A DNA stretch of 63,650 nucleotides, counting the filler, from Nemertoderma westbladi (taxonomy: Eukaryota > Animalia > Xenacoelomorpha), in assembly GCA_032718475.1 (NCBI GenBank). It is 3 parts of 3 records of this genome, joined end to end, with 100 filler letters (N's around TTAATTAATTAA, not from the genome) between each part and the next. Parts side by side here need not be neighbours in the genome. Positions count along the whole stretch, not along the records: positions 20,214 to 51,385 come from JAUCBJ010007377.1; 2 more parts are not named here. The stretch is one strand, 5' to 3'. The position numbers and the translations under genes were made by a program. Of this stretch, positions 2,414 through 63,650 are shown piece by piece (position 1 is the first letter of the stretch; each line of letters begins with the position of its first letter). The notes under the pieces are model-generated. The model was not told the origin of the DNA. It was given only the letters and a program-made list of their open reading frames with translations, and did not search any database.

Positions 2414-2567
2414 TTTAAAGTTGTTCTCAGAGAGAAAGTGTTAAATTCCTTTGCTCTACTTCTAATGGAGGATTTATTACATCTGGGACTTTGTAGGGGA
2501 CCCAAATCGGTGTTTCCATCTAAGAGAATGTACGGGATACACATATCATTGGCTAATAATAACTGTT

Positions 2568-2736
2568 CCAAAATCTCGGCCATATAAACTCCCCATTCCA
2601 CAATCTCTACCATATAAACTCCCCATTCCACAATCTCTGTAATATAAACTCCCCATTCTACAATCTATGCCATATAAACTCCCCATTCCACAATCTCTGC
2701 CATATAAACTCCCCATTCCACACACACACACACACA

Positions 2737-2774
<38 letters not shown>

Positions 2775-29700: not shown

Positions 29701-31670
29701 TGTTGAACCTGATCCTTAATGCCTCTTACCTCTTGCATCATCCTCTGGTTGCCTTCTTGGATGGCTTGTTGTAATTGATACATTTCAACTTGACGTTGTT
29801 CTGTTGTTTCGTTCAGTCTAAAGTTACGGTTATCATGTGAACAGTCCCAATCCACCAGTTGTTCATCCTCCTTCATCCTAAAATTCTCGCGTGACTCACC
29901 ATTATCTGCCGGATTTATAATGCCCCTTATAATGGGTGAAATTTGCTGGCATTCTATGCACTTACAACCTAACAAATGGTGTGGAGATAACTGGTCCATG
30001 TGTTTGGGGTCACGAGGGTGTTGCTGGTAGTCAGGCCACTTACTATTGGTGGAGTTCAATATCCTCGCAGACCCACTGGTCTGTCGTTGCTCCAAAATTA
30101 CGCTGGGTGGAGAATCGTCTTCTGGGTTAACCCAGCCCTTCCCTGCAAACTGGCGATGAAAAGATTCAATAAAATGGACTTTAGATTCCATTCCCTTCTT
30201 ATCGTGAGTTTGATTGTATCGTTCTATGGAAGATGCAACATGGTCTATCCCACTTAACAATGACTCGGCGCGCTGACATCGAAGAGCTGTCTTGGCTTCT
30301 TCTAACTGCATGGCTATGCGACGGCGATTATCCTCTAACTCATTCGCTTTGCGGTGGCGCTCCTGTTCCCCTAATTTTCTACGTTGATCGATGATCAATG
30401 CCTCTTGTTTTTCCTTCAACTCTAATCTTTGGCGGGCAATCTCCCGTTCATGTGCGTGACGTTTATTCTCATCAGCAATACGCTGTAATTGAGCATTGGT
30501 GTCACGCTCAATTCGTCTCCGCTCAATGGCTGCAAGTTTATCCGCCTTGGTACGTTCCGCCTCTGCCCTGGCGTGTTCAATTTCGGCTTCCGCTCGGGCG
30601 CGTTGAGCCTCGCGTCCGGCACTTTCGCACTCGATTTCTATCAAACGATCATTTGCTTCCCTCTCCCGCCTGGCGGCTTCATCTCGAGTTGTGGTGTCCA
30701 AAATATTACTGCCTCCTGCTAAACTTAAGCGCGAAATATCTTGGGTGATCGTCTGCAACTCAGCTTCCGCAAGCTCAGTGCTTATTCGTATCACTTCGCT
30801 CTGTTCAAAATGTAACTTATCCATCTCGGCTCGGCGACCATCTTCGCTTAACCTTCTAACTGTGTCCAGCTGCGATGCAGTTATTGACTGCGAACTTACT
30901 GACTCGCTATGTCGATACCACCTTCCACTTACCTGAGATGGTACACTATCATCTACATGAGCAGTTATCTTACCTGTTTTTTCGTTCTCCTTTGTTGGTA
31001 ATGGTAGTCCAGGTACTACCACTCCCTTCTTATGAAGATATATCTCCAACTTACCCTTGAAACCCAGAAACCATTCATTTAGCTCAAAATCTTCAGAGTC
31101 AAATATTTCGGTTTCAGGTCCCTCCTCCAAACTAGCGCGGTAATTTACTCTAAGCACATTTATACGCTTATTCATATCTATAAAATGGTTACGAATTACC
31201 TGCAACTTATCATATAGGGATGTCAGAGTTCTAAACTGTCTCTCTTTGGTCGCTATACTCACCAACTTCTGTAAATTGATTGTTTGCACGTGTAACAGCT
31301 GATCATATTCATCTAGCATTCTGGCTAAATCTGCCGGGTCATAGGATCCACTGTCTAGGCATTTGGTTAATTTATTTGTCGCCTTGGTTACCTTACCCAT
31401 GTAACCACCTGCACTTTTATTAATTGTAGGATGCCTCAAGGATGTGTTACTATCGTCACTGCTGTCAGCATCAGGGATTTCATCATCAGGGTGTCGAGCA
31501 GCACCCTGAACTATAAACCCAGAAGCAGGGACGATACCTACTGTCTGTGTGGTAGGGGCACTAATAGTCTCAATTACGTCAGGTGTGGTGACGTTTAATT
31601 GCTGACTGGACTCGTCAGCAGTCTCATATTGTTCTGTTACCGGAATGTCGGTATTTGTTGTTTGACTCAT
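26796..31670 (-). CDS. BEL/Pao Gag-protease polyprotein fused in frame to the integrase C-terminal tail (1624 aa; RT, RNase H and integrase core missing)
   Basis: Coiled-coil N-terminus; DUF1759-like PCFTGLPKHWRSF..EKFCYLYQFLKGEP; knuckles CQYC..H....C, CWKCLGTGHKRRDC, CVDCGRLHHRLLH; protease LLDHASNQSY and IIGTD; GHYEVGMLWRE joined directly to W.....NNFWELWIKYYLPTLSQRSKW. Confidence 0.93.
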   Translation of the reverse strand: MSQTTNTDIPVTEQYETADESSQQLNVTTPDVIETISAPTTQTVGIVPASGFIVQGAARHPDDEIPDADSSDDSNTSLRHPTINKSAGGYMGKVTKATNKLTKCLDSGSYDPADLARMLDEYDQLLHVQTINLQKLVSIATKERQFRTLTSLYDKLQVIRNHFIDMNKRINVLRVNYRASLEEGPETEIFDSEDFELNEWFLGFKGKLEIYLHKKGVVVPGLPLPTKENEKTGKITAHVDDSVPSQVSGRWYRHSESVSSQSITASQLDTVRRLSEDGRRAEMDKLHFEQSEVIRISTELAEAELQTITQDISRLSLAGGSNILDTTTRDEAARREREANDRLIEIECESAGREAQRARAEAEIEHARAEAERTKADKLAAIERRRIERDTNAQLQRIADENKRHAHEREIARQRLELKEKQEALIIDQRRKLGEQERHRKANELEDNRRRIAMQLEEAKTALRCQRAESLLSGIDHVASSIERYNQTHDKKGMESKVHFIESFHRQFAGKGWVNPEDDSPPSVILEQRQTSGSARILNSTNSKWPDYQQHPRDPKHMDQLSPHHLLGCKCIECQQISPIIRGIINPADNGESRENFRMKEDEQLVDWDCSHDNRNFRLNETTEQRQVEMYQLQQAIQEGNQRMMQEVRGIKDQVQHIEGKVNQEFESVKWSVQEVQDKVDSTQRDIHTRKLSENLPEVNPITLPKSKVQFQAMECNTDSEEVYDPSTTAKGMYPGSRPHFQYRIFKPSMKLNQQPRNIRGSSNVEGSGSTPVSVIASELSKFGARQSLPPQQPPCFTGLPKHWRSFIHYIDSCVASQDFTSHEKFCYLYQFLKGEPKELVSTFVGDDNAFESAYERLVTTYGGNVRMARSVVEELTKGNPAVTPIEVVKLADAIKSAIKILPIYGCEHYGSRPDILRDIMKRLTLRHRRKVRGLESRVEAKGESLSIKHIYDVISAEGEAELRSNYPEEYLGVERRQQLKFKSTMVSAGNPASSYTSLSDQEMTKVNSAAGYSAKIKVAPPIGPKVTTVQQLPPDFRGCQYCHQLTQKSNDHKLVGCNLFSKLDVEKRRLAIRSLDACWKCLGTGHKRRDCTTSSVSKGCVDCGRLHHRLLHTSQHTPTKRYLQDHPRVLTRPANTTKHNVTFAQTTDFETNYQSGSSSEGEYEYRETSEPETYATDSEPSTTLLTRTQSAAFSIIQVKIQGEFGSKRIYCLLDHASNQSYVDEEVASVVADMEKTKSTLMEVGSLHGQKEIPIKYVRLTVDSLLPRTKQTTTEQRMLPMKHLKFAAIRDFTQLLGSVPIPNKKQREYFKDYNIPEYRIDYRNVSMIIGTDHFDAHRVLESKPTKWKPGEPYSCRTLLGWYTRFPLEWLANTNNKSFEMDDYQTNTMTSEVKHPSDFNDENVSEIDVTTVEESCLLTNPLGFPSDTDFYHIDSLKLMDEDPKEDAEEEVGRMHQVLFDPDEYKRDHTILTLFCKNITAITKQEVLETIRNPNIIEDRKQLAYDYIDEERMMNHKVLQWLDQDAAERNCYDKALSADDQRAIDIMNRTTKLLDNGHYEVGMLWREEPPTPLLPVSVHDRRDLYSKKSWEVNQYLTNNFWELWIKYYLPTLSQRSKWYKQRPPKT

Positions 31671-32475
31671 TTTTTGGGATTTTTATATTTTATATTGATT
31701 AAAATTTTTTAATTTTAATTTGAATTTAATTTAATGAAATTATTTGCTTGTAATAGTTTACAAATTATTACACCAATTCAAATGTGAATTCAAATAAAAC
31801 AACTTTTACAACTCAATTAATTTCAAATTCTCTTATTTTTTATTTATTTCATAATTATAGCCTTGGCTCGACTTTAGGAGACCCTGGATGGTGGGACAAT
31901 AAGACACAACAAAGGGAAGTAATTTAAATTTTTTACTTAAAATTTACAACACCAAACTTATTTTGTATGCACAAGTATGCCACAAATACTGTGCATAAGT
32001 ATTTTAACAAACCTTCAAACAGCCACAAATGAACTATAGATCCCACAAGCACAATCCTATCGACACTACGACCAACCTGTGATTGCTGCTAAACGACGCC
32101 GTCCCACGTCCCAACCTCGTGAATGATCAGTTCACTTGCGTACCAAGTCAAACGTCCCCAGATCCCGGATTGGTTGCGGTGACGAAAGTGATGTTCCTGT
32201 AAGTTGTATTAGAGAATTAGATGGCTGTCTGGTAGATTTACCCTAATTTTATCCTAACAATTTCGACCGAAATATAAATTTTTTAATTTTTTATAAATCT
32301 TATAACGCAGCCCCTTTGGCTCTACAAACTTTCAAACTCGATACAAACTTTACTCAACGGCGGCGCTATAGCAACTCTGTGATTTATTTATAATTTTTTA
32401 CAACGCAAATCAGCTAAGAATTTGTTAAAAAGATTTCGCTAAAGCACATTGCAGATTTATTAACATAATAACCAC

Positions 32476-34062: not shown

Positions 34063-36888
34063 ATTATATTAACTGAGTTCCTACAGTATATATCAGTTAC
34101 ATTATATTAACTGAGTTCCTACAGTATATATTAGTTACATTATATTAACTGAGTTCCTACAGTATATATCAGTTACATTATATTAACTGAGTTCCTACAG
34201 TATATAACAGTTACATTATATTAACTGAGTTCCTACAGTATATAACAGTTACATTATATTAACTGAGTTCCTACAGTATATATCAGTTACATTATATTAA
34301 CTGAGTTCCTACTGTATATATCAGTTACATTATATTAACTGAGTTCCTACAGTATATATCAGTTACATTATATTAACTGAGTTCCTACAGTATATATCAG
34401 TTACATTATATTAACTGAGTTCCTACAGTATATATCAGTTACATTATATTAACTGAGTTCCTACAGTATATAACAGTTACATTATATTAACTGAGTTCCT
34501 ACAGTATATATCAGTTACATTATATTAACTGAGTTCCTACAGTATATAACAGTTACATTATATTAACTGAGTTCCTACAGTATATAACAGTTACATTATA
34601 TTAACTGAGTTCCTACAGTATATAACAGTTACATTATATTAACTGAGTTCCTACAGTATATATCAGTTACATTATATTAACTGAGTTCCTACAGTATATA
34701 ACAGTTACATTATATTAACTGAGTTCCTACAGTATATAACAGTTACATTATATTAACTGAGTTCCTACAGTATATATCAGTTACATTATATTAACTGAGT
34801 TCCTACAGTATATATCAGTTACATTATATTAACTGAGTTCCTACAGTATATAACAGTTACATTATATTAACTGAGTTCCTACAGTATATAACAGTTACAT
34901 TATATTAACTGAGTTCCTACAGTATATATCAGTTACATTATATTAACTGAGTTCCTACAGTATATAACAGTTACATTATATTAACTGAGTTCCTACAGTA
35001 TATAACAGTTACATTATATTAACTGAGTTCCTACAGTATATATCAGTTACATTATATTAACTGAGTTCCTACAGTATATATCAGTTACATTATATTAACT
35101 GAGTTCCTACAGTATATATCAGTTACATTATATTAACTGAGTTCCTACAGTATATAACAGTTACATTATATTAACTGAGTTCCTACAGTATATAACAGTT
35201 ACATTATATTAACTGAGTTCCTACAGTATATATCAGTTACATTATATTAACTGAGTTCCTACAGTATATATCAGTTACATTATATTAACTGAGTTCCTAC
35301 AGTATATAACAGTTACATTATATTAACTGAGTTCCTACAGTATATATCAGTTACATTATATTAACTGAGTTCCTACAGTATATAACAGTTACATTATATT
35401 AACTGAGTTCCTACAGTATATAACAGTTACATTATATTAACTGAGTTCCTACAGTATATATCAGTTACATTATATTAACTGAGTTCCTACAGTATATAAC
35501 AGTTACATTATATTAACTGAGTTCCTACAGTATATATCAGTTACATTATATTAACTGAGTTCCTACAGTATATAACAGTTACATTATATTAACTGAGTTC
35601 CTACAGTATATAACAGTTACATTATATTAACTGAGTTCCTACAGTATATATCAGTTACATTATATTAACTGAGTTCCTACAGTATATAACAGTTACATTA
35701 TATTAACTGAGTTCCTACAGTATATATCAGTTACATTATATTAACTGAGTTCCTACAGTATATATCAGTTACATTATATTAACTGAGTTCCTACAGTATA
35801 TAACAGTTACATTATATTAACTGAGTTCCTACAGTATATAACAGTTACATTATATTAACTGAGTTCCTACAGTATATATCAGTTACATTATATTAACTGA
35901 GTTCCTACAGTATATATCAGTTACATTATATTAACTGAGTTCCTACAGTATATAACAGTTACATTATATTAACTGAGTTCCTACAGTATATATCAGTTAC
36001 ATTATATTAACTGAGTTCCTACAGTATATAACAGTTACATTATATTAACTGAGTTCCTACAGTATATAACAGTTACATTATATTAACTGAGTTCCTACAG
36101 TATATATCAGTTACATTATATTAACTGAGTTCCTACAGTATATAACAGTTACATTATATTAACTGAGTTCCTACAGTATATATCAGTTACATTATATTAA
36201 CTGAGTTCCTACAGTATATAACAGTTACATTATATTAACTGAGTTCCTACAGTATATATCAGTTACATTATATTAACTGAGTTCCTACAGTATATAACAG
36301 TTACATTATATTAACTGAGTTCCTACAGTATATATCAGTTACATTATATTAACTGAGTTCCTACAGTATATAACAGTTACATTATATTAACTGAGTTCCT
36401 ACAGTATATATCAGTTACATTATATTAACTGAGTTCCTACAGTATATATCAGTTACATTATATTAACTGAGTTCCTACAGTATATAACAGTTACATTATA
36501 TTAACTGAGTTCCTACAGTATATAACAGTTACATTATATTAACTGAGTTCCTACAGTATATATCAGTTACATTATATTAACTGAGTTCCTACAGTATATA
36601 TCAGTTACATTATATTAACTGAGTTCCTACAGTATATATCAGTTACATTATATTAACTGAGTTCCTACAGTATATAACAGTTACATTATATTAACTGAGT
36701 TCCTACAGTATATAACAGTTACATTATATTAACTGAGTTCCTACAGTATATAACAGTTACATTATATTAACTGAGTTCCTACAGTATATATCAGTTACAT
36801 TATATTAACTGAGTTCCTACAGTATATATCAGTTACATTATATTAACTGAGTTCCTACAGTATATAACAGTTACATTATATTAACTGA
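34063..36888. repeat. 38-bp minisatellite, ~74 copies, ATTATATTAACTGAGTTCCTACAGTATATA(T/A)CAGTTAC
   Basis: Directly visible, highly homogeneous head-to-tail array with no spacers. Confidence 0.98.
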
Positions 36889-38831: not shown

Positions 38832-41235
38832 CATGGGCGAATATAAGATTATTAGTAGTTATATTAGAGTTGATTGATACACGTTTCCATAAAAATATTT
38901 AACTTTATGGGAATAATGTGTGTTTATAAAACTACAGTGTAAAAGTACAGTTAAAAATCCAAAAATGTAGCCACGGGCGAAGCTGACCCCATAATAATAA
39001 TAATATAATAATACAATATGGATATATTTCTCTAAAAAATCTGTAAGAACTACTGTACTTCCAACTTCAACAATTTTTTTACTATTTCACTTGCCAGGCC
39101 CAGATGTAATACGGTTTTAGAACATCGTCATGCTCTGAAAGGAGGCCAGAGGAACAAGATATCCTTGGCAATAACTTAAATCGTTCAAGAATGTTTCGCA
39201 TATAATGAAAACAAACATAGATAAATATAATACCAATACTACCGGTAGCTGTTCTTGTATTATATTCGTGTAGAAAAATGGTCAATAATCAGAGTGTAAT
39301 ATAATAAATAATCACAGTCATTTTGCGATTCTAGAATTAGAAATATGATACAGAATAGTACATCATGGTACTAGTGAGCTGGTTATTGCTTATTCCCTAG
39401 AGATTCACATTATGTAACTTTTGTTTTGGTTTGTGGTTTGTATATATTTATTGGCACTACTTCGCCCTGTCGACAGCCTCTGTCAATTTTTTTAACCATG
39501 GATTTTTTTGTGTTTTTCAATGTTTTTTTTTGATAATGGTGAATGTTCTAGAACCTTAAGTAGATATTTTTTTTAATAGCAGCTAGCGTTTTTTTAACTA
39601 GCTAGAATTTTTTGAAAATAAAAAAAAATTTTGTTAACATTATTAATTAGCTAGCGTTTTTATGAAGGTTGTGGGTTTTTTACTACAGTAGCTAGTAATA
39701 GTAAGTATTTAAGATGTTTAAAACTGATTTTTTTTAATGTTACGTTATTTATAGGTGTGATTGGTTGGTAAACAAGCCTATATTTTTTATGGGTTTTATT
39801 TTATTATTCTTTCCAGCGACAATTTTGCTGAATGTAGAATCAGAAAACTGTACCGATGTTCAAATAATCTCAAACGATGTTTAATATACACTATAAACTG
39901 TTATAATATCATCAATATTTATATCTACTAAATGTTCTATAAATTCTTTTTTCACCAATACCAAAAAAGCATTAAAAAACTCTAAAAAGGACTGGTGAAA
40001 AAATGGCAGGGGGTGAGTAGTATATATTACATGGAACCTCGGCCAAGGTCACCCGTAGTCCATCATTACCGTCCATTTCTGGTACTATAAGAAGCCACCA
40101 TTTCAACCTTTAGCAGTGGTCGTTATTATTTCAACCAATCAGATGTCAGCATTTCATCCGTAACCATGGCAACTTCTCAAGTTCCCGCATCTTCCGCTAG
40201 AGGCGTTATTAGTCACCCAACGCTAGTACTCCGTCCAATCACCAACCTTTATTTTACAGGTGTTCGGGTGTCTACAGGTAACTTCTACTATTTTTCAAAT
40301 CGCTATTTTTCAGCAACCAGTATTTTCATATTCACCAACCTTTATTTTACAGACGCTAGGGGTGTCTACAGGTAACTTCTACTAATTTTCATCAGTAACT
40401 AAATTTAATTTTGCAATTTTTCAGATAACAAAATATTCAACCGGGTTCGAACTCGGGACTGCTATAACTCCTCACAACTCACTACTCACTCTTCCACCCA
40501 ACCTCGAGAGAAAAAGGCGATAATTATCCGAGTTATAACAAAATATTCAATCGATGATATGATATGATATTGTACTGTACAGTACGTAGCCTAACCTAAC
40601 CATCCATTCGTATACCTACCGTAGCTATGATGGTTACTCTTCCTTTCACTTTTTTCTCTCCCTCTCTCTCTCTTTAGTGTTGTTTGTTATTGATTGATTG
40701 TTGTCAACTCAATGATTTCCTATCCACCCGCTACTTGGCCACGTTGCTGTATCCTTGTGTTTTACTGCAATTCTCCACTCACTCTTCCATCCAACCTCGA
40801 GAGAAAAAGGCGATAAATATCTGAGTTATACCATAGTCATTGAATTCTTCATCTTCATCACTGGTAGCAGATGTTTATAAATAGCTTCTAGTTCCTTAAC
40901 ATAATTACTATAGCGTAGAATACATTAATTCAACTATTAATAATAATCGATTTCTTTTATCGATGTAACTGATCGATCAACTAAGTTGAATATAAGTTAG
41001 AATGACAGGGCTAGCATTGATCACGTTGCATCTGTTACACGTTACTGCTATTTCACTCTCTAACTAACGCTAATGTAATAAATTTAGCTGTACACGTTGC
41101 ATCTGTTACACGAAGCAACTATATTCCTCACTGTAAGTCACTCTGTTTTATTAAAGCAAGCATATAAACCGAAGTTTTACATTCTAATAATCATTTATTT
41201 AGTTTTTATTTTTCAAAATAGTTTTCATTCTAATT

Positions 41236-42020
41236 ATGGATTTATTTAAAAAAACTTCAAGCAATACTTGGAAATTTACATTTAATAAATATACCTGTAG
41301 TATACCTGTACTCTTCAGAGTAAGACAGAAATATTAGAATTGTTATCACCACCACTCGAAATAATAAATCAGTGTTCTGTTGTTAATTTAACCAACCCAT
41401 CTTTTGTTGGTTTTGTAAGCAAATATAAAGGAACGACTTATATGGGACTATGGGAGATTTCAGCTAGATATTCTGATGCTATTGGTCTTAGGTATTATAA
41501 TGGGTTTAACTTAACAGCATCGGAAGTAAATTCATTGTGGTATGAATGGAATTATGAAATTAGTAACGAAGGTGTCTTTTCAGAGCTAGATACGGACGAT
41601 AAAGCTTTATCTGACCGACTTAAAGTAAAAATAAATGTACAAGAAAAAAAAGTAATTATTACAGACAAGGAAAGCAAATATTTACAGTTACATTACGATA
41701 AAGACATACCATATATAGAGTTTCTCTACGATATGATGTTAAAGGTTTCATCAACTGATATAGCAGACGGTTTCGCGATTCTATATCAACCAACTTGGAA
41801 GTTTAAGGTTAATAAGTCATTTCCAGAAGTAGTTTCATCCACATTTAATCCAAAGACATACATCGAAGAGACCTCGAGTGATAGAAAGCGCAGATCTACA
41901 TCTCAAACATCTTCCATTCCCAACAATGATTCTATACCTACAAAGAAAATAAAAGTTACAAAAGCAAGTGAAGAGGTAGCAGATTACAATAAGGAACATA
42001 TAAAAACAGTATCAGATTGA
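41236..42020 (+). pseudogene. PC4-like ssDNA-binding protein gene of the pPolB module, frameshifted by an 11-bp duplication
   Basis: FVSKYKGTTYMGLWE...NGFNLTASEVNSL resembles PC4 (VS.FKG....IREY...KGISL...QW..L). Removing one copy of TATACCTGTA(G/C) at 41290-41311 puts ATG 41236 in frame with ORF 41340..42020. Confidence 0.5.
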
Positions 42021-42586
42021 TTTATTATTATTAACTAGAGACTTTTCTTTTTCAGTTTCACACTGACTTGTAAAGGTAACTTTTTATCACAAAGCGTGAT
42101 TATTATAAAGTATTTGCATGTAAAGGTGACTTTATTGAGTAAATATTGGTGATAGTTTATATTTAATGTGAGCATGGGATTAGGTATAAAACATTCGCAT
42201 GTAAATGCATGAGTTTACACCACCATAATAAAACATTTAGCATGTAAAACCTACTTTATCAATGAAAATTAAAAAAACACATTATACACACATCTTGGTT
42301 TAGACTTGATTTTATTATAAAGAATTCAGTTGTAAAAGCAATTTTATTTATGATATTAGTTCCCAATGTAACTGTTATTTATGATTGGTTGGTATAAGTA
42401 GAAACTTGAAATATATATATATATAAAGAACTCAACTGATTCAATCGAGCTCATTCTGAAAATATTAAATTAATTAAAGTTTAGATATTATATTTTATTT
42501 GTGTTGAGTAGCTTATGAATTTTTTTGATTATATATATATAACAATATTCATATTAATTTTAAATTGTTTTTAGGATAATAAAGAG

Positions 42587-45500
42587 ATGGATAAACAATT
42601 GAAATGTCCATTTTGTCCTCCTCAAATTTCTAAACGTAACTATTTACGCCACCTAAGGACGCATTTTGAAGGTTATTCTTGTTTTAAGTGTCACGTTTTC
42701 ACACCTACAGAAGAAATATGTAAACGACATGAGTCAACTACGGGATGTAAAGAAATGAAGTTTTGCGTGTATGAAAAAACATGCCCTACTTGTAATAAAG
42801 AGTATTTATATGAGAATTACTTACGTCACAACTGCCACCAACGTTATTATCATGTTAGACCACAACGGAGCCAAAACAATACTATCGCATCTAGAAAAAG
42901 ACTGAAATCTGGTCAAGGTCCATCAATTTTTAGCATCGAACGAGCTGCACACGATAACCGTTTAGAAATCTATGTTTACAATCTTCCAGATGATGAAGAT
43001 TTTCCTGATATTCATTCATCATTAATTAAAATTCAACCTCACATCCAAACTTTATTATTGGGAAAACTTAGCGAAATGAATGTACTTAGACCCTGGCTAG
43101 GTGTGAATATACTCATGTATCGATCACATTTTTCAGAGGGTGATCAAGAAGAAACTTTCTATTTTAGTTCTTCAGGTGGTTCAGTTAATACCGTAGATTC
43201 ACATGAAAGTTTTGACACATGGTTTGAGTATGTACTAGAAACATTAATGCAAAATATAGCCATGTTTAACACTCGTGGCTCAGGGTGGCGCGTTAAATCT
43301 TTATTAAGAGTGGAAATTAAAGTAGCTGAATCCAAGTGTAGGTCGTTACTATATAAGGGGCATGGGTATATGGAATTACCTAAGGCTCTATCAGTTAAAA
43401 AATGTGTTATAAATATACAAACGGCTGATAATGATTGTTTTAAATGGGCAATTATAGCCACAAAATTTAGTTGCAAAGTGAAAGATCACAAATATCGTAC
43501 TTCGCAGTACAAAAATTATATGAGTCATTTCATTTTTGACAATGGGAACAAAGATTATCCAACAGAGTGGCAGCTTGCAATTAAACTTTTTGAAAAACAG
43601 AATTCAGCATATATAATTAATTTATTACTCTACGACAACAATCGAGTATCTATATTAAGACAGGCACCATTTAGTAAAATCACTCCAGATAAAGAGTTAT
43701 TGAATATATTACTTGTAAAAAATAAGAATACGAGTAAACAATCACATTATGTTTGCATAACTAACTTGAATCGTTTGATGAATACGAGAGCTCTTCATAC
43801 TCGTGGTAGGAAATATTGTGAACGGTGTTTGGCACCTTTCTACACCAATGATGTTCTAGAACGTCACCGTCTTGTTTGTTATCGAGGAAAAAGTCAAGTT
43901 GAGAAGCTACCATCTGAAAAAAGAACTCACATTAGCTTTAGAAATTTAGACAGAACATTACCAGCATTGTTTGTAATATATTTTGACATAGAATCTATTT
44001 TGGAGCCAGCCACCAACAGTAAATTTATTCAGAATCATATTCCTTGCGCTGTAAGTTATTTAATTGTTCCTAGTAGTGAATTAATCAATCCACCAAAATT
44101 TTATTTGAAGACCTTTACAAAAACAATCGACAACAACTGTATTCAAGACTTTTTAGACTCTGTATATAATGACATCACCCAATTATATAAGTGGTCGGAA
44201 GACCACACAAGAGAGAGAATGATACTTAATGATGCAGATAAGTTAAGTTTTTGGAAAGCTAAAACTTGCTTTTATTGTAATGTTTTATTTAAGGATAAGT
44301 CTGAGAAAAACAAACATCACTCACATATTACTGGTAACTATATAGCGGCCGCTTGTAACACATGTAACCGCTCTTTATCGTTGAAACGACACATGTATAT
44401 ACTCGCTGCACACAACTGCAATCTCTACGATTTGCATTTTCTTTTGCAAGTTGGTTTTAGCAATAATAAATATTCCGATTGGGATATAAAGGTAATCCCT
44501 AAAAATTCTGAAAGGTATATTTCACTAAGCATGCATATACCAGTGAAAGATGAAAAAACTAAGATCGAGCTACGTGTCTTAGACACATATCAATTTTTAT
44601 CCTTTTCCCTAAGTACTTTAGTTGATTGTTCAACAAAGGATATAGACAGCGAGGATATAACATCAGTTCTACCAATTACTGAACAGCAAATGAAATATTT
44701 TTATCCAAATTTAAATAATAAAAACAATTAAACGAAAAGGTATATTTCCCTACGAGTATCTGACAGATTTAAATAAATTCAATGATTCGAAATTACCATC
44801 AATAGACAAATTTTATAGTAAATTAACACAAAATACCTGTACACCCGAGGAATATAGTTTTGCCAACGCATCATGGAGTCAGTTTGACTGTGTGAATCTC
44901 AAGGATTATCTTTTAGCATACTTAAAACTCGATGTTTGTCTCCTCGCTGATATATTTGAGAACTTTAGGAGAGTGTGTAGACAAAACTACGAATTAGAAG
45001 TAGTTTATTATTGCAGTATCGCAGCTTTCACTTATGATTGCGCCCTGAAATACAATAAATGTAAGTTAACATTAATAAAAGATTACCAAACATATAGAGA
45101 TTTTGAAGCATCTATTAGAGGAGGGGTTTCATTCTGTCGAAAGCATTACATAGAATCAAATATACCAGATACTGATAATTATGATCCAAGCAAGGAAGAG
45201 TGTCATATTTTCAATATAGATTTTAATTCCTTGTATTCTGGTAATTTAAGTAAAAAGCTACCTGTTTCAGGTTTTGAACAAGTCAACGTTACATATTTAG
45301 AGAATGCTGCTCCAGAAGAACTGATAAAATATTTAACAAATCTTGATACTGAAGGTGATATTGGGTTTTTCTTAATTTGCGATTTGAAATATCCCAAAGA
45401 TATTCACGATCGTACATTAGAACTACCCTTAGCTCCAGAACATTTAAGTATAAATGAGATAATGCTTTCACCTTATATGAGGGAACAATTTAACAATGTT

Positions 45501-46604
45501 TGTAAACAAAGAGGCACTAATAGCAAGTATAAGATGTGTGCACCGAAACTTATGTTGACACAATTCGATAAAGAATTCTATCATGTAAATTTAAAACTGT
45601 TAAAATTTTATATAAAACAAGGTTTAATTGTTACTAAGCTCCATAAATTATATTCTTTCCATCAAGACTTTGTATTTAAACCCTATATAGATTTTAATAT
45701 TAATCAAAGGCAGCTAGCAAAAAGTTATATTGAAACAGCTGTCGTGAAATTGCTGAACAATTCTTTATTTGGAAAAACGATAGAGAAGATAAGGGACCGA
45801 TGCAACTTTCGTATCGCTAATAGTAAAGAAAAATGTGACCAATTAGTCAAACGTATAAATCACGAAAATTTCATGATTTATAACGATTCCTTATCGGGTC
45901 ACTTATTAGTAAAAGACTCTGTAACTCTCGATAAGCCGGTCTATATAGGTAGTACTGTCTTGGACTTGGCTAAATTGGATATGTATCAGCTGTATTACGA
46001 TAAATTGCTACCTATTGAGAAAGAATTAAACTGCCGAATTGAAATTGTAGCATCAGATACGGACTCTTTAATAGGTTGTTACTATAATACATCGCAGAAT
46101 AATTTTTTAAAAGCCTTAATTAAAAATAATATTCTAGATACATCCAATTACCCCAAGGATCACCCTCTCTACAGCGATAAAAATAAATCCAGGCTCTATT
46201 ACTGTAAAGACGAACTAGCCTCACGTGAAATTAAACAAGCGGTATTTTTAAGACCAAAATTATATTCAATTTTAGAATGGAATGATTCCAATATACAACG
46301 GGCAAAAGGAATAACAAGAGCTGTCGTGGATAAAAATATTTGCCACGAAGATTATGTAAGAGCATATAACTCAAACGAAGAAATTTCAAAAGAAATACAT
46401 CAATTTCAAAGTAAATTACACAAAGTGTATACTATAGCACGTGATAAGTTTGCTCTCAGCGCATTTGATGATAAACTTTATTGGGTTAATAAAAATCATT
46501 CGCTTCCCTGGGGTCACTATCAAACAAAGGTCGAAAAACCGATAAAGAAAAACAATATACCTATTTATCAGGAACCAAACAATGAACTATCAGATAGTCA
46601 ATAA
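42587..46604 (+). CDS. Protein-primed family B DNA polymerase (Polinton/adintovirus type), one frameshift at ~44715-44728
   Basis: N-terminal C2H2 fingers, GSGW, INIQ..DNDCFKWAI, HYVCI, ExoI YFDIES, endonuclease-VII-like CFYC..HHSHITG.Y..AACNTCN, ExoII HN..YDLHF; then in the shifted frame RKGIFPYEY, ExoIII YLKLDV.LLADIFENFR, IRGG, motif A DFNSLY, motif B KLLNNSLFGK, motif C SDTDS, KDE, RPKLYS, RAKGI, FDDK. Confidence 0.93.
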
Positions 46605-47127
46605 GAATGTAAGTTGCCAGCAAGTGTCAGCGATTAATTTTAAAGAATTAAAAAATCAATTATCAGGTAAACACATACTCAAACCAAATCAGTTTATATA
46701 TAAGATATTTGGTGCCACATTATTAATATTTAAAAATGGTCGTATTACATTATTAGGCAGTAAGTATAATTTCCAAAAAGTAAAAAAGCATATATTTGAT
46801 AAAACTAGTATTAATTTGATTTTAAAATCTGTTAATTTATGTACTTATATTTTTAGTATTAAGTCTGTAGTCTATAGGTTATTGATAAACAATACCGGGT
46901 TTTATGTTGTCTTTGATAATGTGCAACTTCAAGTTATATATGAACCTGAAATTTTTAATAATTGCAAAATAAGAATAAATAATACCGTAGTCATTTGCTG
47001 CTTTCATACCGGTAAATGTACTTTAATGTGTTCACCTAGCAAATTTCATATTTATTACCCTATATTTAGTAAACTTGTTAATTATTTATTAATGTTTGGT
47101 GTTGTGACTTTAGGTGTTGGTGATTAG
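46582..47127 (+). CDS. Divergent TATA-binding-protein (TBP)-fold protein
   Basis: Two TBP-like repeats: ATLLIFKNGRITLLGSK (cf. TBP TALIFSSGKMVCTGAK) and YEPEIF..CKIR....VICCFHTGKCTL (cf. YEPELFPGLIYR..VLLIFVSGKVVL). 181 aa, the size of a TBP core; overlaps the PolB stop by 23 nt. Confidence 0.72.
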   Translation: MNYQIVNKNVSCQQVSAINFKELKNQLSGKHILKPNQFIYKIFGATLLIFKNGRITLLGSKYNFQKVKKHIFDKTSINLILKSVNLCTYIFSIKSVVYRLLINNTGFYVVFDNVQLQVIYEPEIFNNCKIRINNTVVICCFHTGKCTLMCSPSKFHIYYPIFSKLVNYLLMFGVVTLGVGD

Positions 47128-47214
47128 AAGGTGAAAATTAAACATTATTATTTTTCAATCAATCTATCGGTAGTTAGGGAAAACTAACCTCGTTTGAATA
47201 AGTATGACTCTCAC

Positions 47215-47495
47215 GGGCTGACCGCGTGCCAAGCTGCGTGGCTGGCTGGCTGACTGCATGACCGACCACGAGGCTGGCTGCGTGCCGCGAGGCTGACTGC
47301 GTGCCGCGAGGCTGACTGCGTGCCGCGAGGCTGACTACATGACCGACCACGAGGCTGACTGCGTGCTGCGAGGCTGACTGCATGCCGCGAGGCTGACTGC
47401 AAGGCTGACTGCGTGCCGCGAGGCTGACTGTGAGGGTGGCTAGACGGCTGCAAGGTGGACCGTTTCCCAGCAGTGTGGCTGACTGCGCGCACATC
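47215..47495. repeat. GC-rich ~19-bp tandem repeat (GGCTGACTGCGTGCCGCGA) downstream of the pPolB module
   Basis: About a dozen variant units visible; the flanking block GCTGC.AGGT.GACC..GCAGTGTGGCTGACTGCG..CACAT recurs at ~47855-47903. Confidence 0.85.
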
Positions 47496-47901
47496 CGATT
47501 GTAACTGGCTCACGATAATGTATACATTGACTCAGTTTGTTACTGCGGGTACTGTTACATTAATACTGTGGTACCGGTACCGTACTGCAGTACAATGCTA
47601 ATTAAAGGAAATCAGCATGCTCTATCTGACTATACTGTTACATCAAGAACAGCGACAGTACTGCAGTACTGTATTGTTTGGGTAGGTGATCTAATCCCTA
47701 TATGTGAGAGCTACATGTCCCTTCTAGGTTATGACAGCAGTATGCTAATCAAGGTTCGGGTAGACAGCTGTATCCTTATAGTTGAAAAAAAAAAAAATGT
47801 TATTACATCAGATTACTGTTGTACTGATAAAATGGATGACAGTTGTGGATAGGAGCTGCGAGGTTGACCACATCCCTCGCAGTGTGGCTGACTGCGTACA
47901 C

Positions 47902-48334
47902 ATAGTGTGTATGATTGTGATTGGTAACAAAGTATTTCCTAAAGAATACGCTTTATACTTCAATCATAAGCAGTATCGTTGCGTTTTAGTATAAGTCTTA
48001 GTTCTGTTTAAATAGATAAAGCGCCACGTCCTAAAGGAACTGTTAATATTTCCCGAAAGCCTATAATATCTGTCAGAGATTAATTATTAACGATCTATCG
48101 AATAATACAGTAGGTATACACTGCAACCTTACACTGCAATAATAAAATTTAAGCATCCGAATTCAGTCTCCCGGGTGTAGATCCATCGGGTGAATGATCG
48201 CGCATGGGCTGACTTCGGCTAATGTTTTGTGTATTAGCATAAAATATTGTCGTATGCTAAAGGTGTTTTTATTAACTAAAAGACATATAAATTTTGGCAG
48301 GTTAAACTGCTAAAGGTCTTCAAAAGCGCGAACA
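47902..48334 (+). mobile_element. 3' portion of a family B LTR (copy 3)
   Basis: Near-identical to 23292..23723 and ends CAAAAGCGCGAACA. Confidence 0.9.
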
Positions 48335-48684
48335 GTAACAGTTTATAATCTTATTGCAGTAGGCAATAAGGTTGCAAAATACCGTAGTGACTGGTAAAAC
48401 TGAACCGGTACTCTGTAGGTCAGTAGGCCTAACTGTCATCACCGGTACCGGTACTGCTGTACAAGTACATTTAGTATTATTCGATTTTGATTATTGTATA
48501 CCGGTAGGCTGTTTAAGAGATTAGGGACTGTACACCCCTTGTTTCTTTTGGAGCTTATTTATTTCTGTCGGTTTTATTTCCTAGTAAGTTAATATTGAGC
48601 TGAAGACGTGTAAGTCTGCTCAGATTGTGCAAGTAATTGTAGGCTGAACTGCTGTCTGACTGTGTTGAGTTTGGAGAGATTACG

Positions 48685-49155
48685 GCGTGTGTAGAGTTTG
48701 TCTGATAAAGTGCCGTTAGTAAGTTGGGGCAGCCATATGCGGTAAGGTCAATCCCCTCTTAAAGAATAAGTCGTACTACCGTGTTAGAACGCATACTAAC
48801 TAACAGTTTCAGAGTCTGCATATACTGTAGTTTATTTAGGCTTGATCGTAGTCTGCCAGTGTTTTAGTCTGTGTTTGTTTGTGTGGTCTGTTCAGGTACC
48901 GTAATAGTTATTACTCAAATATTTTGTAGGCTAGATTGTTGTCTAGCTATTCTTAGGCCTGAAGGGATTGCTGCGTGTGTAGAGTTGGTCTGATAAAGTG
49001 CCGTTAGTAAGTTGGGGCAGCCATATGCGGTAAGGTCAATCCCCTCTTAAAGAGTAAGTCGTACTACCGTGTTAGAACGCATACTAACTAACAGTTTCAG
49101 AATCTGCACATACTGTAGTTTGTTTAGGCTTGATAGTGGTCTGCCAGCGTTTAGT
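48685..49155. repeat. Two ~185-bp direct repeats, 288-bp period
   Basis: GCGTGTGTAGAGTT..TGATAAAGTGCCGTTAGTAAGTTGGGGCAGCCATATGCGGTAAGGTC.. at 48685 and 48973. Confidence 0.9.
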
Positions 49156-50524
49156 TTGTATTTTGTTTGAGTATTCTGTACGGGTAGCGTAATATTTATT
49201 ATTCAGAGTTTATGCGATTATTCGCAACATTCATGTCCCCAAGTTTATTCCTACAGTAATTGTGCTTGTTATACATACCGTTATAGTTAAACTAACCCCG
49301 GTACTACATCAGGGCTGCTTGGCGTAGGTAAAGACTGACGACTTTGTGCTTCGGTCACTCCAGCAGATGCCGTGGTTCTTTTAACTGTTCAAGTATATTT
49401 AACTACTGATTATTTGTTATACCGGTACTTGTACCTAATTTAGGGTTTAGTGTACAGTGCTATCCGAAGTAATTAGTGTAGGCAGTATATTTGTGTTGTA
49501 AAGTGGTTAATAGGCACGCTGGATCTGGTAGTCCGCGGTAATTAACTTCTAGGTAGGAACAATCCGTGATACATAACGTAGTACCTATAGCGATACGGTT
49601 ATAGGTCGTCAGGCGGTGGTATTTTCCTATCTGGACAGTACAGTATATTTACTACTACTTATTATTTTCAAATACCGTAGTACCCTGTCCATTGTAATAA
49701 CCAGAATTCTAACCCTTTGTTAGGCTGGTTTGTAGACTTCCTGTAAAATTACCCTAAAAATTCGTACGTAATATTTTTGTTGTGTTTAACTAGAGATTTA
49801 ATCTCACCCGTATCGTAAGTAATTTGTAGTATTAAGTAACTTAGGTAAATTAGAATTATCTGTTTTAGTGTCCCATAAATAGCACTTCACTGAGAGCGCA
49901 CAGCTTCTGTGTAGTGACCCCCCAGAAATAATAACATTTATTTCAAATATTGACAAAAACCCATATAACGGGTATATAAATATTATAAATCAAATCAAAC
50001 GATTTATAAATAGTAGGCCTGTCATACAAAAACTAGGTCTCACTATCAGTTGGACTACTGCTTAAATAACGGTAACAAAGTAAGTTAAAGTAACCAAGTA
50101 GCCCTAAAATATTCAGAGATTCAAATATTCTAAAATAATTGACATACCGGTACTCACTATAGGCTTATTATATTTATCTCTATAAATTTGAGCTGAAATC
50201 ATACCGGTACTCTGTAATTAATTCTAGTTCATAATTATACTTACATGCTGTAAGTGTAAGCTGTATACCGGTATTCATTATAGGCCTACTATATATATAT
50301 ATATATTTGTGCTAAATTTATACACCGGTACTCTGTGGCAAATCTAGTCTGTAATAATACTTATATATACTATAAGCATACCGGTATTCTGATATAATAT
50401 ATATATATCCCGCTATATTAAGTAGCAGTATCGGTAATTAATTATTAGGCTAGCAGTGATACTGAATTACTAGACTTGCTTTAACTGTATTTATAGCTGT
50501 AGGCATTCGACTGTGTAAACAAAC

Positions 50525-51385
50525 ATGTCGGACACAACCCAATCACTGTCGGATAGTCTTTTGGAAAGTGTTAGAATGACTGTTAGACAGTGTCTTAAAA
50601 AGATCAGTGACCCAGATCCCAGTATAGAACATCCTAGATCCAAGTCTAAGTCACCTCCTGCTGTAAGAAAGGCCATCCCTACCGTAGTAGTGTCAGACCC
50701 TAGACTAGTAGAACACCGTAGGTCTATCATCGGCACTCGGGCCCAAGTCAAGCGGGATCAAGAAGCAGCTATCAAACAGCAGCAACCTCCTAGCCCAGAA
50801 CCTAGTTCTCAGCGGCCCGATGGCTCCAGTTGTTCGGATACTGCTGAGCGGAGACCCGAACGCGGAGCGAAGATGGCGGATACGGTTTATGATGAGCGAC
50901 CAACCTTTGAAGAATCAACCGACGCTGCTTCTCCTCAAGTGGAAAGCGAAGTGGAAAGCGAAGTGGAAAGCGAAGTGGAAAGCGAATTAACAGCAGCAGA
51001 GAAGCCGCGAACTAAAGATGCCATTGACATCTATCTGTCAGACTATCAGCGATTCATAGGAGACGAAGAGTTGAGGAGACGACTGTCTGGACTTCGCCCT
51101 AATAGTGAAGGAACCAAGCTTGTGTTGGACGCAATCGATGCGGAAATGTTAGCTGCAGAACAAGCTAAATGTGATGAAAAACTCCGCCTCGTTAGAGTCC
51201 AAGAAGAACAAGTAAAGAAAAGAAGGATAGAGGAACAAAAGGCGGCGGCTATGGCGGCGGCTACGGCAGAAGCAGAAGCCGAAAGAAAGGCAGTGGCGGC
51301 AGAAGCAGCAGCAGAAAGAAAGACAGCAGCGGCAGAAGTAGAAGCAGAAAGAAAAGTGGCAAAGGCAGTGAGAGAAGCAGAAAGG
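50525..51385 (+). CDS. Low-complexity/coiled-coil ORF running into the gap, possibly a retrotransposon Gag N-terminus
   Basis: AAACATG start; (VESE)4 repeat; A/E/R/K-rich helical end; preceded by a long repeat-containing non-coding leader. No diagnostic motif before the gap. Confidence 0.4.
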
Positions 51386-51485
51386 NNNNNNNNNNNNNNN
51401 NNNNNNNNNNNNNNNNNNNNNNNNNNNNNTTAATTAATTAANNNNNNNNNNNNNNNNNNNNNNNNNNNNNNNNNNNNNNNNNNNN
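51386..51485. other. Artificial assembly linker (44 N + TTAATTAATTAA + 44 N)
   Basis: Same construct as 20114..20213. Confidence 0.97.
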
Positions 51486-56140: not shown

Positions 56141-59100
56141 GTCGTCGTCGTCGTTGTCGTCGTCGTCGTCGTTACGATTTTGACATGCTAATAACTTTGT
56201 CGGATTTAAAGCTGCCAAGTTGAAAATTTGTAGGTATCAATATGAGCAAAAGTTTAGATTTTTGAGAGACTTTCAGACACCATCAGTGCAATGGTCTCCC
56301 GCTAGAGGGCCACATGTCTAAACATTAAATGCCCTCCCATTTCTTTGCTTTTAATCCGTTTAAGCTGAAACTTGGCAGATATGTATTAGACCATTAGCTG
56401 TGACTTTCAAAGGAGGCGAATCCATCTGCAGTTCTCCAGTCTGCCGCTAGAGGGCCAAAGGTCTGAAAGTGAAATCGTTGTCGTCGTTACGATTTTGACA
56501 TGCTAATAACTTTGTCGGATTTAAAGCTGCCAAGTTGAAAATTTGTAGGTATCAATATGAGCAAAAGTTGAGATTTTTGAGAGACTTTCAGACACCATCA
56601 GTGCAATGGTCTCCCGCTAGAGGGCCACATGTCTAAACATTAAATGCCCTCCCATTTCTTTGCTTTTAATCCGTTTAAGCTGAAACTTGGCAGATATGTA
56701 TTAGACCATCAGCTGTGACTTTCAAAGGAGGCGAATCCATCTGCAGTTCTCCAGTCTGCCGCTAGAGGGCCAAAGGTCTGAAAGTGAAATCGTTGTCGTC
56801 GTTACGATTTTGACATGCTAATAACTTTGTCGGATTTAAAGCTGCCAAGTTGAAAATTTGTAGGTATCGATATGAGCAAAAGTTGAGATTTTTGAGAGAC
56901 TTTCAGACACCATCAGTGCAATGGTCTCCCGCTAGAGGGCCACATGTCTAAACATTAAATGCCCTCCCATTTCTTTGCTTTTAATCCGTTTAAGCTGAAA
57001 CTTGGCAGATATGTATTAGACCATTAGCTGTGACTTTCAAAGGAGGCGAATCCATCTGCAGTTCTCCAGTCTGCCGCTAGAGGGCCAAATGTCTGAAAGT
57101 GAAATCGTTGTCGTCGTTATGATATTGACATGCTTATAACTTTGTCGAATTTAAAGCTGCCAAGTTGAAAATTTGTTTTGTTGAAAATCAGTTCAACAGT
57201 CACCCGCTATGTCACCGCTGTTTAAAATCTCAGAATCAAAGAAATTTTGGAAACTTCTCAAGTCTGCCTGCGGTTCTAATGACGGCCTTCAGGAAGGCTG
57301 CAGTGTTTCCCAGTTTGAGGAACACTTCCGTAAGCTTAATGTAGAAAGTAATTTTGAGTTTATGGATACAGGCAGTATATCCAGGCCTCATAGTAGCAAC
57401 CTAGCTGAAAGCAAAGCTATTTTTGACTTGTATTTAGGTGAGGCTTTCTCAGAGGATGAAGTTAGCAGGGGGATCGACAAGCTCAAGCGTGGAAAGGCCA
57501 CTGGGCCAGATAGTATCAATTCAGAAGTTTTTATTGAGGGTGCAGACAGTTTGTTACCGGTCGTTACCTCTATTTTTAATGCCATTTTGCACTCAGGATA
57601 TTTCCCCTCTTGTTGGGGTCTTGCTAATTTGGTTCCAATATATAAAAAGAAAGGTAGTAAGTTCGATCCCAACAATTTTCGGGGAATCTCTTTGTTAAGT
57701 ATATTTGGTAAACTGTTCACCAACCTAATCAATTCCAGACTTCAGTGGTGGGCTGATTGTTTCGGAGTACTTATCGAAGCCCAGGCCGGGTTTAGAACAG
57801 GATTTAGCACCATTGATCAGATTTTCACTCTAAATGCTTTAATTAGCCATTTTTTAAAACGCGGAGCGAACAGAAATTTATACTGCGCATTTATAGATTT
57901 CCAGAAGGCGTTCGACTCCGTTGATAGATCTGCACTTTGGTCAAAATTACTTTCTCTCGGATTCTCTGGAAAAATTCTTACAGTAATAAAGAACATGTAT
58001 GGTGCGGCGAGGTCTCAAGTTCGATTTCAGGGTTCAGTATCTGAGCAGTTTGATTGTCTTGTAGGAGTCCGACAAGGGGAATGCTTGAGTCCCCTTCTGT
58101 TCGCGCTATTCATTAATGATTTAGAGGCGGAACTACGGGATGGAGGAATTCAGGGCCTGGATGTAGGTGCGCTCAAACTTTTCCTGTTACTTTATGCTGA
58201 TGATATCGTGTTGGTTAGTGAAAGTATTAGTGGACTACAGGGTGCACTCGATATCCTTGGTTGCTATGCCGACTATTGGGGTTTGCGGGTTAACATGGAC
58301 AAGTCCAATATTATGATTTTTAAAAACGGTGGGAATCTTGCACAGCGTGAACGGTGGACTTTCCACAATCGTGAACTCAAAATTGTCTCTGACTATACTT
58401 ACCTAGGAGTAATATTTTCTCCCTCTGGCGGATTCAGGAAAGCGGAGTGTTCTCTTGCAGAGAAGGCCTCTAAAGCATATTTTGTACTCTTAAAATATTT
58501 TTCGAAATTCCCAAACATTTCACTGAGCTTAAAAGTTCATATCTTCAATACACTTGTGAAACCGATCCTGGATTATGGAAGAGAAATCTGGGGTTTCCAC
58601 AGCGCTCCAGAGTGCGAACGAGTTCAACTTAAATTTCTAAAACGGTTATTGGGGGTAAAGTCAGGAACACCTAACTTCATGAGTTATGGTGAAACTGGAG
58701 TATTCCCGCTAGCATTGTCTAGGGAAATTCGTATAGTAAAATATTGGATTAAAATTATTAATTTACCAGACTCGCGTTTAGTCAAGCAGGCGTATCTTAT
58801 GCTACTTCAGGACTGTCTGACTTTCAATGACAGTAACTGGGTTTCTGGTGTGCGCGATCTGCTTAATAAGTCTGGTAAAAGTTGGGCGTGGGTCAACCAG
58901 TCGGTCAGCTGTAATAAAATGTTTATTAAATCTCTAGAACGTACATTACAGGATAACTTCATCCAGTCTTGGTGGAGTGCGATAGAAAATTCTCCCAAGG
59001 GAATTTGGTATTTCAAGAGGGTGTTTGGGGCAGAAAACTACTTAAACTCACTTAGTGGTTACCCTACACTGTGTAAGACTGTGAGCCGCCTAAGGTGTTC

Positions 59101-62901: not shown

Positions 62902-63650
62902 ACTTAGGTTCTGTCGTTACCTTAATTAATTACTAATGGTTTTACCTACTTGTGTTTATACGAGGCATTTTGGCAGCCTCGCCTTGATTACTGCTGTGGG
63001 TATTACAAAGGTTTTCTAATCTAAATTACAGTATGTAAATTAATTGAATTCTAGAATATTATATATCGTCTCCACAGCTACCTATTATGGCATTTATCCT
63101 TTAAATTCATATTTCTTATGTCGTGATGAAGTCCCATAATTGGCTCTAAGGTCCTCCTGCCATTCCATCTTTACGGAAACACCCCTGATTCCCACACAAA
63201 AGTTTCTCTGGGGGATGCCTGATGCGATTGAACGTGATGCTGTTGAATATGAGATCGAGATCAGAAAATGATGGCAAAGTTAAATTGGGGTGATGGCCGG
63301 CATCGAATCCGTGGTATACCAAGAGCAATTGTGAATTTTTAAGTCCCTTTAACTATGGCAACAGGAGCATTTCCAAATCAGTACTTTCTACTGTGTTTAA
63401 AAATTGATCTACCCCACCTAAACCGACATCAGATAATCCGCTGAGGTAGAATCCGGTTACCATGAATGCGTCTTCAAATGTTGTTTTTACTGTAAGTTTC
63501 GGGTAATCTCTGCAAATTTTAATAGTTTTCAAAGCAATTGCCAAATACATGTTCCCCATAATTGTGACGGGATCCGAGAGGATCCCGGTTTATCCGGTGT
63601 TGTTTATGTACGCGTCCCCGCCGTGTGAATGAAAAGAGTTGTTGTTCCAG

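Follow-up and report, generated by a model that had tools for sequence, protein, structure and literature searches.

The family B DNA polymerase (PolB) of the Maverick family copies a linear genome by protein priming. Here we analyse a stretch of 63,650 nucleotides (nt) from the genome of Nemertoderma westbladi (GCA_032718475.1), referred to as a whole as the window, in which positions 40016 to about 47900 likely represent the left-hand portion of a Maverick (Polinton, adintovirus-type) element in integrated form, probably a truncated copy, carrying a gene for a divergent TATA-binding protein (TBP) homologue beside its PolB gene. Mavericks, Polintons and Alpha adintoviruses, as portrayed in the pertinent sections of PMC8502044 and PMC8097293, resemble this element in their PF03175-type protein-primed PolB, compact intronless genes, (AGT)2 end and many copies. 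Long relatives of the window element further resemble Mavericks in an rve-chromo integrase and weak hits to an A32/IVa2-like ATPase. TBP, by contrast, lies outside the eight core genes given for vertebrates and the adintovirus accessory genes set out in section 3.2 (PMC8097293, PMC8502044), and the window copy shows no integrase or virion genes; an OTU domain was not detected at its PolB N-terminus either, where Pfam gave weak zinc fingers only.

Divergent, saddle-shaped TBPs like that of the window are encoded by large DNA viruses (Heterosigma akashiwo virus, Ectocarpus virus EsV-1-53, Mimiviridae, asfa-like B263R and iridoviruses, all in BFVD). Most large DNA viruses with TBP homologues encode their own RNA polymerase. 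In a Maverick, which lacks one, TBP would have to plug into host RNA polymerase II (Pol II), and the kept TFIIB-binding stirrup described below fits such a role; gene activation through private promoter words, the likely role of the window TBP, has until now been known chiefly from DNA viruses of far greater size. In print we found, for a related virus, only the case of a MELD virus, a mid-size virus with an adintovirus-like PolB and a gene labelled TBP (PMC8502044, Fig. 5 legend; bioRxiv 10.1101/697771, legends of Figs. 5 and 6). There the gene is a legend label within the section on non-animal eukaryotes, unaccompanied by analysis in the text found, and the one supplement of PMC8502044 consulted has no TBP text. 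pPolB2 Polintons with an HNH insert share with the window element an endonuclease domain within the PolB exonuclease region, and differ in that the main text describing them mentions neither TBP nor PC4 (PMC10748475). The terms TBP and TATA have no occurrence in the main texts of PMC11131425, PMC10748475 and PMC8097293, and we found no paper analysing Maverick TBPs, although figures, supplements or subscription articles beyond those consulted may add to this literature result.

Three genes lie on the plus strand of the element, co-oriented as the original prediction had it: ORF1 (open reading frame (ORF) with its ATG at 41236), PolB (42587–46604) and the TBP-like gene (46582–47127). The last is intact, encodes a protein of 181 amino acids (aa) with a pI of 9.6, and does overlap the PolB stop codon (46604) by the 23 nt first noticed. 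Its two TBP repeats, proposed earlier by inspection, were recovered by Pfam (PF00352, E=5.7e-9, 36.1 bits against a cut-off of 22.9, in two stretches), by structure prediction and by Foldseek. Searches with the single sequence gave nothing among 41 candidates and nothing among 1.84 billion representatives, and phmmer against the PDB returned no TBP. A five-homologue profile matched 35 PDB sequences at E<=0.01, all of them TBP or TBP fusions, and a TBP profile drew 50 proteins from 829 candidates. We aligned 47 of these 50 with the proteins of the window and of three related PolB-bearing loci, L030, L035 and L043 (51 rows). The model predicted from this alignment is a two-repeat saddle with a predicted local distance difference test (pLDDT) score of 81.5; it has 44 PDB matches at E<=1e-3 in Foldseek, with TBP entries only among the matches listed (E 3e-10, template modelling (TM) score 0.56–0.69), and also matches the TBP-like proteins of large DNA viruses in BFVD. 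Since the model derives from an alignment of TBP-like proteins, its agreement with TBP folds is not evidence separate from the sequence. A model from the single sequence (pLDDT 41.9) was too poor to use: its best match had a Z-score of 5.7, no TBP was retrieved, and RNase HIII N-terminal domains scored 4.9–5.1.

Six residues (E121, E123, F50, F125, F141, G144) do not vary across the alignment (51 of 51 rows). The segment E121-P-E123-I-F125 corresponds to E144/E146/F148 of Arabidopsis TBP, the TFIIB stirrup, in which E144 and E146 contact TFIIB according to the relevant part of PMC10005294. Three of the four DNA-kinking phenylalanines (F50, F125 and F141) are kept, and the first position is K or P; phenylalanine is absent there from the window and from 40 of 40 Maverick-type rows versus present in 8 of 10 cellular-like rows, the latter labelled by eye. 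Because this first phenylalanine is lost, we class the protein as a divergent TBP-like protein and not as a canonical TBP, from which it also stands apart in identity (17–20% to cellular TBP). At the yeast L205 column, 39 of 40 Maverick-type rows carry T or N, the window C, and 9 of 10 cellular-like rows L; across the I194, V203 and L205 columns the window has K, V and C and the Maverick type mostly L, H and T, the columns being those we take to be equivalent from their offset, in yeast numbering, to the two C-terminal phenylalanines. In yeast, L205, V203 and I194 set TATA versus TGTA specificity, as given in the part of PMC1636458 concerned. Compared with cellular TBP and yeast TBPm3 as described there, the window protein is alike in its two-repeat saddle, C-terminal stirrup and three of four phenylalanines, and unlike in the lost first phenylalanine and in natural changes at the very columns that retarget TBPm3 to TGTA (PMC1636458). 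The changes on the DNA face are fixed within subclades, and N7 is kept.

These residues bear on the question, left as an alternative in the original prediction, of whether the protein is a private promoter factor or a decoy. As a decoy, it would bind TFIIB or other TBP partners through its stirrup, bind DNA poorly, and damp host transcription or defence; an invariant stirrup beside a lost kinking phenylalanine would be expected of such a protein, as would the departures of the window copy from conserved core positions, and there is a precedent in TRF2, which is said to have lost TATA binding with loss of an intercalating phenylalanine (PMC10005294, in the passage on TRF2). We nevertheless consider a decoy unlikely, given that three phenylalanines and N7 are kept in a basic protein (pI 9.6) and that the DNA-face changes are fixed within subclades and not random.

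The TBP gene is linked to PolB of the window type in other genomes, in 4 of 106 PolB-bearing loci. An ORF scan of these loci recovered L030 (E=1e-6) and L035 (E=9e-5), and a profile added L043 and L046; widening the TBP profile brought no additional TBP from the 106 loci, the next-ranking hit having E=0.17. Scans of viral contigs yielded no loci with TBP queries, none with a single PolB protein, and two already known loci only with PolB query A6. In a FastTree phylogeny of PolB (117 rows: the window, 87 of the 106 loci with at least 480 aligned residues, and 29 of 120 proteins; 574 columns), the window PolB falls in a 32-member clade (support 1.0) together with L030, L035 and L046; L043 was too short and was left out. 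Among tree loci of at least 12 kb, TBP is present in 2 of 2 inside this clade and 0 of 25 outside it, counts that refer to loci related by descent and not to independent events. The two TBP-carrying subgroups occupy separate branches within the clade, as would fit acquisition long ago. Among named PolBs the tree places that of Macrostomum lignano nearest, with a support of 0.33, which says little. Two further loci, L107 and L108, are Polinton-type PolB genes on short contigs in two bacterial genome bins and are likely eukaryotic contamination.

L030 and L035 both have an rve-chromo integrase above cut-off and weak packaging-ATPase hits, with pX in L035 and PLA2 in L030. L035 also has ORFs of capsid size and protease-like ORFs, with counterparts in other PolB loci, labels we assign from size, recurrence and motifs, and a capsid-like gene is found in L062 as well; neither kind was named by a library search, and the capsid-like ORF of L035 had no match in the PDB or NCBIfam. 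The gene order is PolB, two small genes and TBP in L035, L043 and L046, with a gene after TBP in L035 and L043 that we take, from a motif, to be exonuclease-like; in the window it is ORF1, PolB and TBP, and in L030 TBP precedes the packaging ATPase, 5.5 kb from PolB. The two small genes look PC4-like by eye (L035:7095–8940); they failed PC4 tests, weak signals of 11/500 and 20/500 disappearing with a larger profile.

Promoter words were sought in the 80 nt upstream of called ORFs in 29 loci of at least 12 kb, comparing the best 6- or 7-mer with 200 random draws. In L030, CATAAAC occurs in 7 of 14 upstream regions, a strength equalled by 0 of 200 draws, and all 12 copies of the word lie on the gene strand, mostly shortly before start codons. 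In L035, TTAAGC occurs in 5 of 14 upstream regions (5/200 draws for the 6-mer; the best 7-mer was not significant). One of the 27 other long loci, among which are two duplicate pairs, reached that level (L020, 3/200). Both long TBP-carrying relatives thus have an upstream TATA variant of their own, which speaks against the decoy, and of the two roles first considered we therefore favour the private promoter factor.

In the window itself, TATAAAC occurs at 41163, 73 nt before ORF1, and the spacer between ORF1 and PolB (42069–42340, +) holds TGTAAA five times, of which four follow ATAAA and three take the form GCATGTAAA, a candidate factor-binding array. Five copies are seen where 0.57 are expected; once the post-hoc choice of word is allowed for, the 6-mer count is attained in 80 of 1000 shuffles and the 9-mer count in 19 of 1000, so that the significance is modest. 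We speculate that the window TBP reads TGTAAA. The same array, together with a TBP gene that either overlaps PolB or comes shortly after it (window, L035, L043, L046), could instead reflect a TBP fold reused as a binder of the replication origin or terminal repeats that aids PolB. This seems very unlikely to us, since in L030 the gene adjoins the packaging ATPase at 5.5 kb from PolB and a role in replication leaves the invariant TFIIB stirrup unexplained.

Our favoured reading, which we hold to be reasonably probable, is that the element belongs to a PolB lineage with a TBP of its own, and that this TBP likely binds a variant TATA word in the promoters of the element and recruits host TFIIB and Pol II. 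The linear element would be replicated by its PolB through protein priming; the TBP-like protein would bind the variant word and bend the DNA with its three phenylalanines, and the kept stirrup would pass the promoter to host TFIIB and Pol II, favouring the genes of the element. Late genes, for the virion and packaging, would then be activated after protein-primed replication, and the family in this host would have a virion module. ORF1, possibly a PC4-like single-stranded DNA binder, would serve strand-displacement replication, and an antisense RNA would restrain the replication block.

Several observations weigh against this reading. The window element lacks both CATAAAC and TTAAGC, and because it has no late genes the promoter test was carried out on relatives, whose TBPs are only 19–23% identical to that of the window. 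Long loci with a TBP number only two, and common descent gives relatives shared traits; when loci of at least 8 kb are counted, TBP is present in only 2 of 4 in the clade (outside, 0 of 34). Monophyly of the Maverick-type TBPs has a bootstrap of only 37%, and no virion module was seen for the window family in the 63-kb window. The window protein, moreover, has N126 where 38 of 40 rows have P, M149 where 36 of 40 have T and C150 where 50 of 50 have G, and it lies on a long branch (length 2.3), features that may mean a change of function or ongoing decay. Taken to its end, this last point would make the gene a decaying passenger captured from a host and without function in the element, a reading for which the long branch, the loss of residues of the G150 and P126 type and the two broken neighbour genes of the window copy could be cited. 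We think it extremely improbable: the gene has an unbroken ORF, the invariant residues are preserved in 40 Maverick-type homologues, and the modelled saddle is complete.

The polymerase beside this gene is a Polinton-type protein-primed PolB with an endonuclease-VII-like insert, as first described, and in the window copy it is not a single intact ORF. A frameshift near 44,720 splits it into a 5′ piece of 714 aa (42587–44731, +), with N-terminal Cys/His fingers, a likely terminal-protein region, Exo I and II and the insert, and a 3′ piece in a 629-aa frame (44715–46604, +) with Exo III and the Pol A, B and C motifs. All exonuclease and polymerase motifs are present, under their conventional names. 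At the break, most depth in public sequencing runs X1–X3 differs from the window by an insertion or deletion, and the break is therefore peculiar to the window copy or to the assembly. The insert has a CxxC..H..H..CxxCN pattern at 44267, and Pfam Endonuclease_7 matches the window PolB below cut-off (E=0.0076) and the L035 PolB above it. The 5′ piece is 25% identical over 562 aa to the intact PolB of L035. For the 3′ piece, 667 relatives were retrieved at E<=1e-3, the best at 40% identity, and many among the matches listed carry PF03175 or PF02945.

ORF1 (41236–42020, +) is broken in the window, with a 239-aa open frame at 41301–42020, a PC4-like motif seen by eye at about 41385–41570, possibly followed by a second beta-rich unit, and a low-complexity tail rich in S, T and K. 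It had been thought to need repair, which holds, although the damage is not a mere frameshift: contigs of runs X3 and X4 carry roughly a quarter of a kilobase extra near 41,310, and the longer copies indicate an internal deletion in the window copy at that point. The motif V.KYKG..M.L.E...GFNL...E...L resembles a segment of human PC4 in a comparison by eye, and the identification as PC4 went no further than this likeness, failing every profile test. ORF1 had no match as PC4 in Pfam, PHROGs, the PDB or the Atlas; 304 of 1000 shuffles scored at least as well as its residues 20–100 against a profile of 13 bacterial PC4 sequences. A homodimer prediction was uninformative (score 0.00, uncertain fold). 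No homologue was found in the 106 PolB loci, in phages or in the Atlas, and ORF1 is not similar to the two small genes beside TBP in L035, L043 and L046. A fixed order of PC4, PolB and TBP is not supported, with other orders and no ORF1 homologue in the relatives. Judged from sequence, ORF1 might equally well be PC4-like or not; if it is, a role in replication would possibly be more economical than one in transcription, on the analogy of strand-displacement replication in general.

A spliced antisense RNA likely spans TBP, PolB and ORF1. Among the 15 joints listed (of 49), 5 are skips of 887–2,144 nt, confined to run X4, that define four distinct introns within 41938–47188, bounded by CT..AC on the plus strand and hence GT–AG on the minus strand (45045–47188, 43914–44836, 41938–43765 and 41938–42824). 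Between them lie two inner exons on the minus strand, 44837–45044 and 43766–43913. The minus-strand donors fit the consensus, reading GTTAGT, GTATTT, GTTAGT and GTAAGT, while TTTCAG or TTGTAG closes each of the three acceptors, all rich in pyrimidines; the background chance of CT..AC is 0.003 per joint, before allowing for an ambiguity of 2–3 nt in the cut. The intron joints occur in X4 only, with zero depth in X1–X3. Together with depth peaks over the exons, they suggest that X4, catalogued as DNA by guess and stemming from one study, is RNA. Stop codons interrupt each of the three frames of the 208-nt exon 44837–45044, which makes a non-coding RNA likely. The RNA may derive from any copy of the element, its start lying either there or within a host unit, and it likely dampens or silences the replication genes. 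A wider scheme would join these strands into an orthogonal promoter code across the Maverick lineage, in which TBPs dock host TFIIB and read their own TATA variants (CATAAAC, TTAAGC and possibly TGTAAA) and antisense RNA from the other end holds the replication genes down; we offer it tentatively, as a possibility somewhat short of an even chance.

The element extends beyond the 41236–47500 first assigned to it, from 40016 to about 47900. Its likely left terminus is the AGTAGT at 40016–40021 (+), placed there by sequence and by the boundary of a flanking repeat: a contig of that repeat in run X2 matches 39854–40015 and continues in other letters. AGTAGT is a common Maverick end motif in the account of ends given by PMC8097293. 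Directly before it stands GGGGTG, a candidate target-site copy, whose partner was not found (0 of 6 ACTACT sites downstream of the element are followed by it), nor was an inverted partner of the AGTAGT end found within the window; of the ends sought on the basis of the original prediction, only the left has a likely candidate. The non-coding left arm (40016–41200) has internal direct repeats (40239–40297/40332–40391, 40475–40540/40768–40833 and 41022–41041/41093–41112) and may include a terminal inverted repeat. Beyond the TBP gene lies a GC-rich tandem repeat with a 19-bp unit (47216–47430), likely near the start of the antisense RNA, with a related 49-nt copy at 47855–47903; a 106-aa ORF there (47174–47494, −) is repeat-derived and was not counted as a gene. 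The element region is AT-rich, at 28–33% GC versus about 40% for much of the window.

On the right the element is cut by another, far more abundant repeat outside it (47902–51385), as seen from a depth step and loose contig ends at 47902 in runs X3 and X5. The summed depth of this repeat is at least 10x that of the element in X1 and X3, a 92% copy of it lies at 23292–23389, and it is followed by an assembly gap (51386–51485). It holds an ORF of at least 287 aa at 50525 that runs into the gap and has no match in Pfam or NCBIfam. We rejected ACTACTACT at 49651 as the right end of the element, finding no inverted repeat and no matching target copy. Thousands of contigs from runs X1–X3 cover the stretch, at identities from above 99% down to below 90%, and X3 has single near-identical contigs at depths of 3,700–6,500 versus 20–60 for low-depth contigs; we do not take read depth as copy number, and the pattern points to many similar element copies or to replicating DNA.

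Integrase, ATPase, protease and capsid-like genes were absent from all six frames of the window, where the copy is cut on the right, in agreement with the lack of capsid, integrase and ATPase remarked on before. The choice had been between a fragment and a minimal linear-plasmid-like element. With a left end motif present, the right end absent, and another repeat and a gap on the right, the element is likely a fragment, and a truncated copy accounts for it most simply. A minimal self-replicating element that has no capsid, made up of ORF1, PolB and TBP and either using an integrase borrowed from other Mavericks or persisting as a linear plasmid, would explain why no core gene lies in 63 kb and why summed depth stays broadly level between about 40 and 47.9 kb. 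It is quite unlikely, in our view, as the copy has no right terminus or inverted-repeat partner and runs into the other repeat and gap, and clade relatives have an integrase and packaging ATPase (L030, L035) or a capsid-like gene (L035, L062).

The remainder of the window holds other repeats and open frames. Adjoining the Maverick-type end, 39488–40003 is an AT-rich element of about 520 bp, with inverted ends 72% identical, that is repeated in the runs; its inverted repeat is taken as a separate flanking repeat. Satellite arrays occupy 2566–7063 (30-bp unit x150, strong C skew) and 34063–36888 (38-bp unit x74, 98% identity). A 653-aa open frame at 8347–10308 (+) has a PR/SET domain and a C2H2 zinc-finger array and is PRDM-like. 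BEL/Pao-type pieces, with reverse transcriptase and a leishmanolysin-like (Peptidase M8) frame, lie at 11086–12108 (+), 26796–31682 (−), 57185–59386 (+) and 61453–62916 (−). These flanking genes, taken with the named relatives of PolB, suggest that the host is an invertebrate animal. A 705-aa frame at 20328–22445 (+) has no Pfam match and a weak RNase D-like match (E=0.0045).

For Mavericks, which have no RNA polymerase of their own, a TFIIB-competent, retargeted TBP would offer a concrete late-gene switch. The spliced antisense RNA, if confirmed, would show transcription of the family and may give a clue to its silencing. Maverick TBPs, if they are indeed retargeted, would be natural variants for studying how TBP reads DNA.

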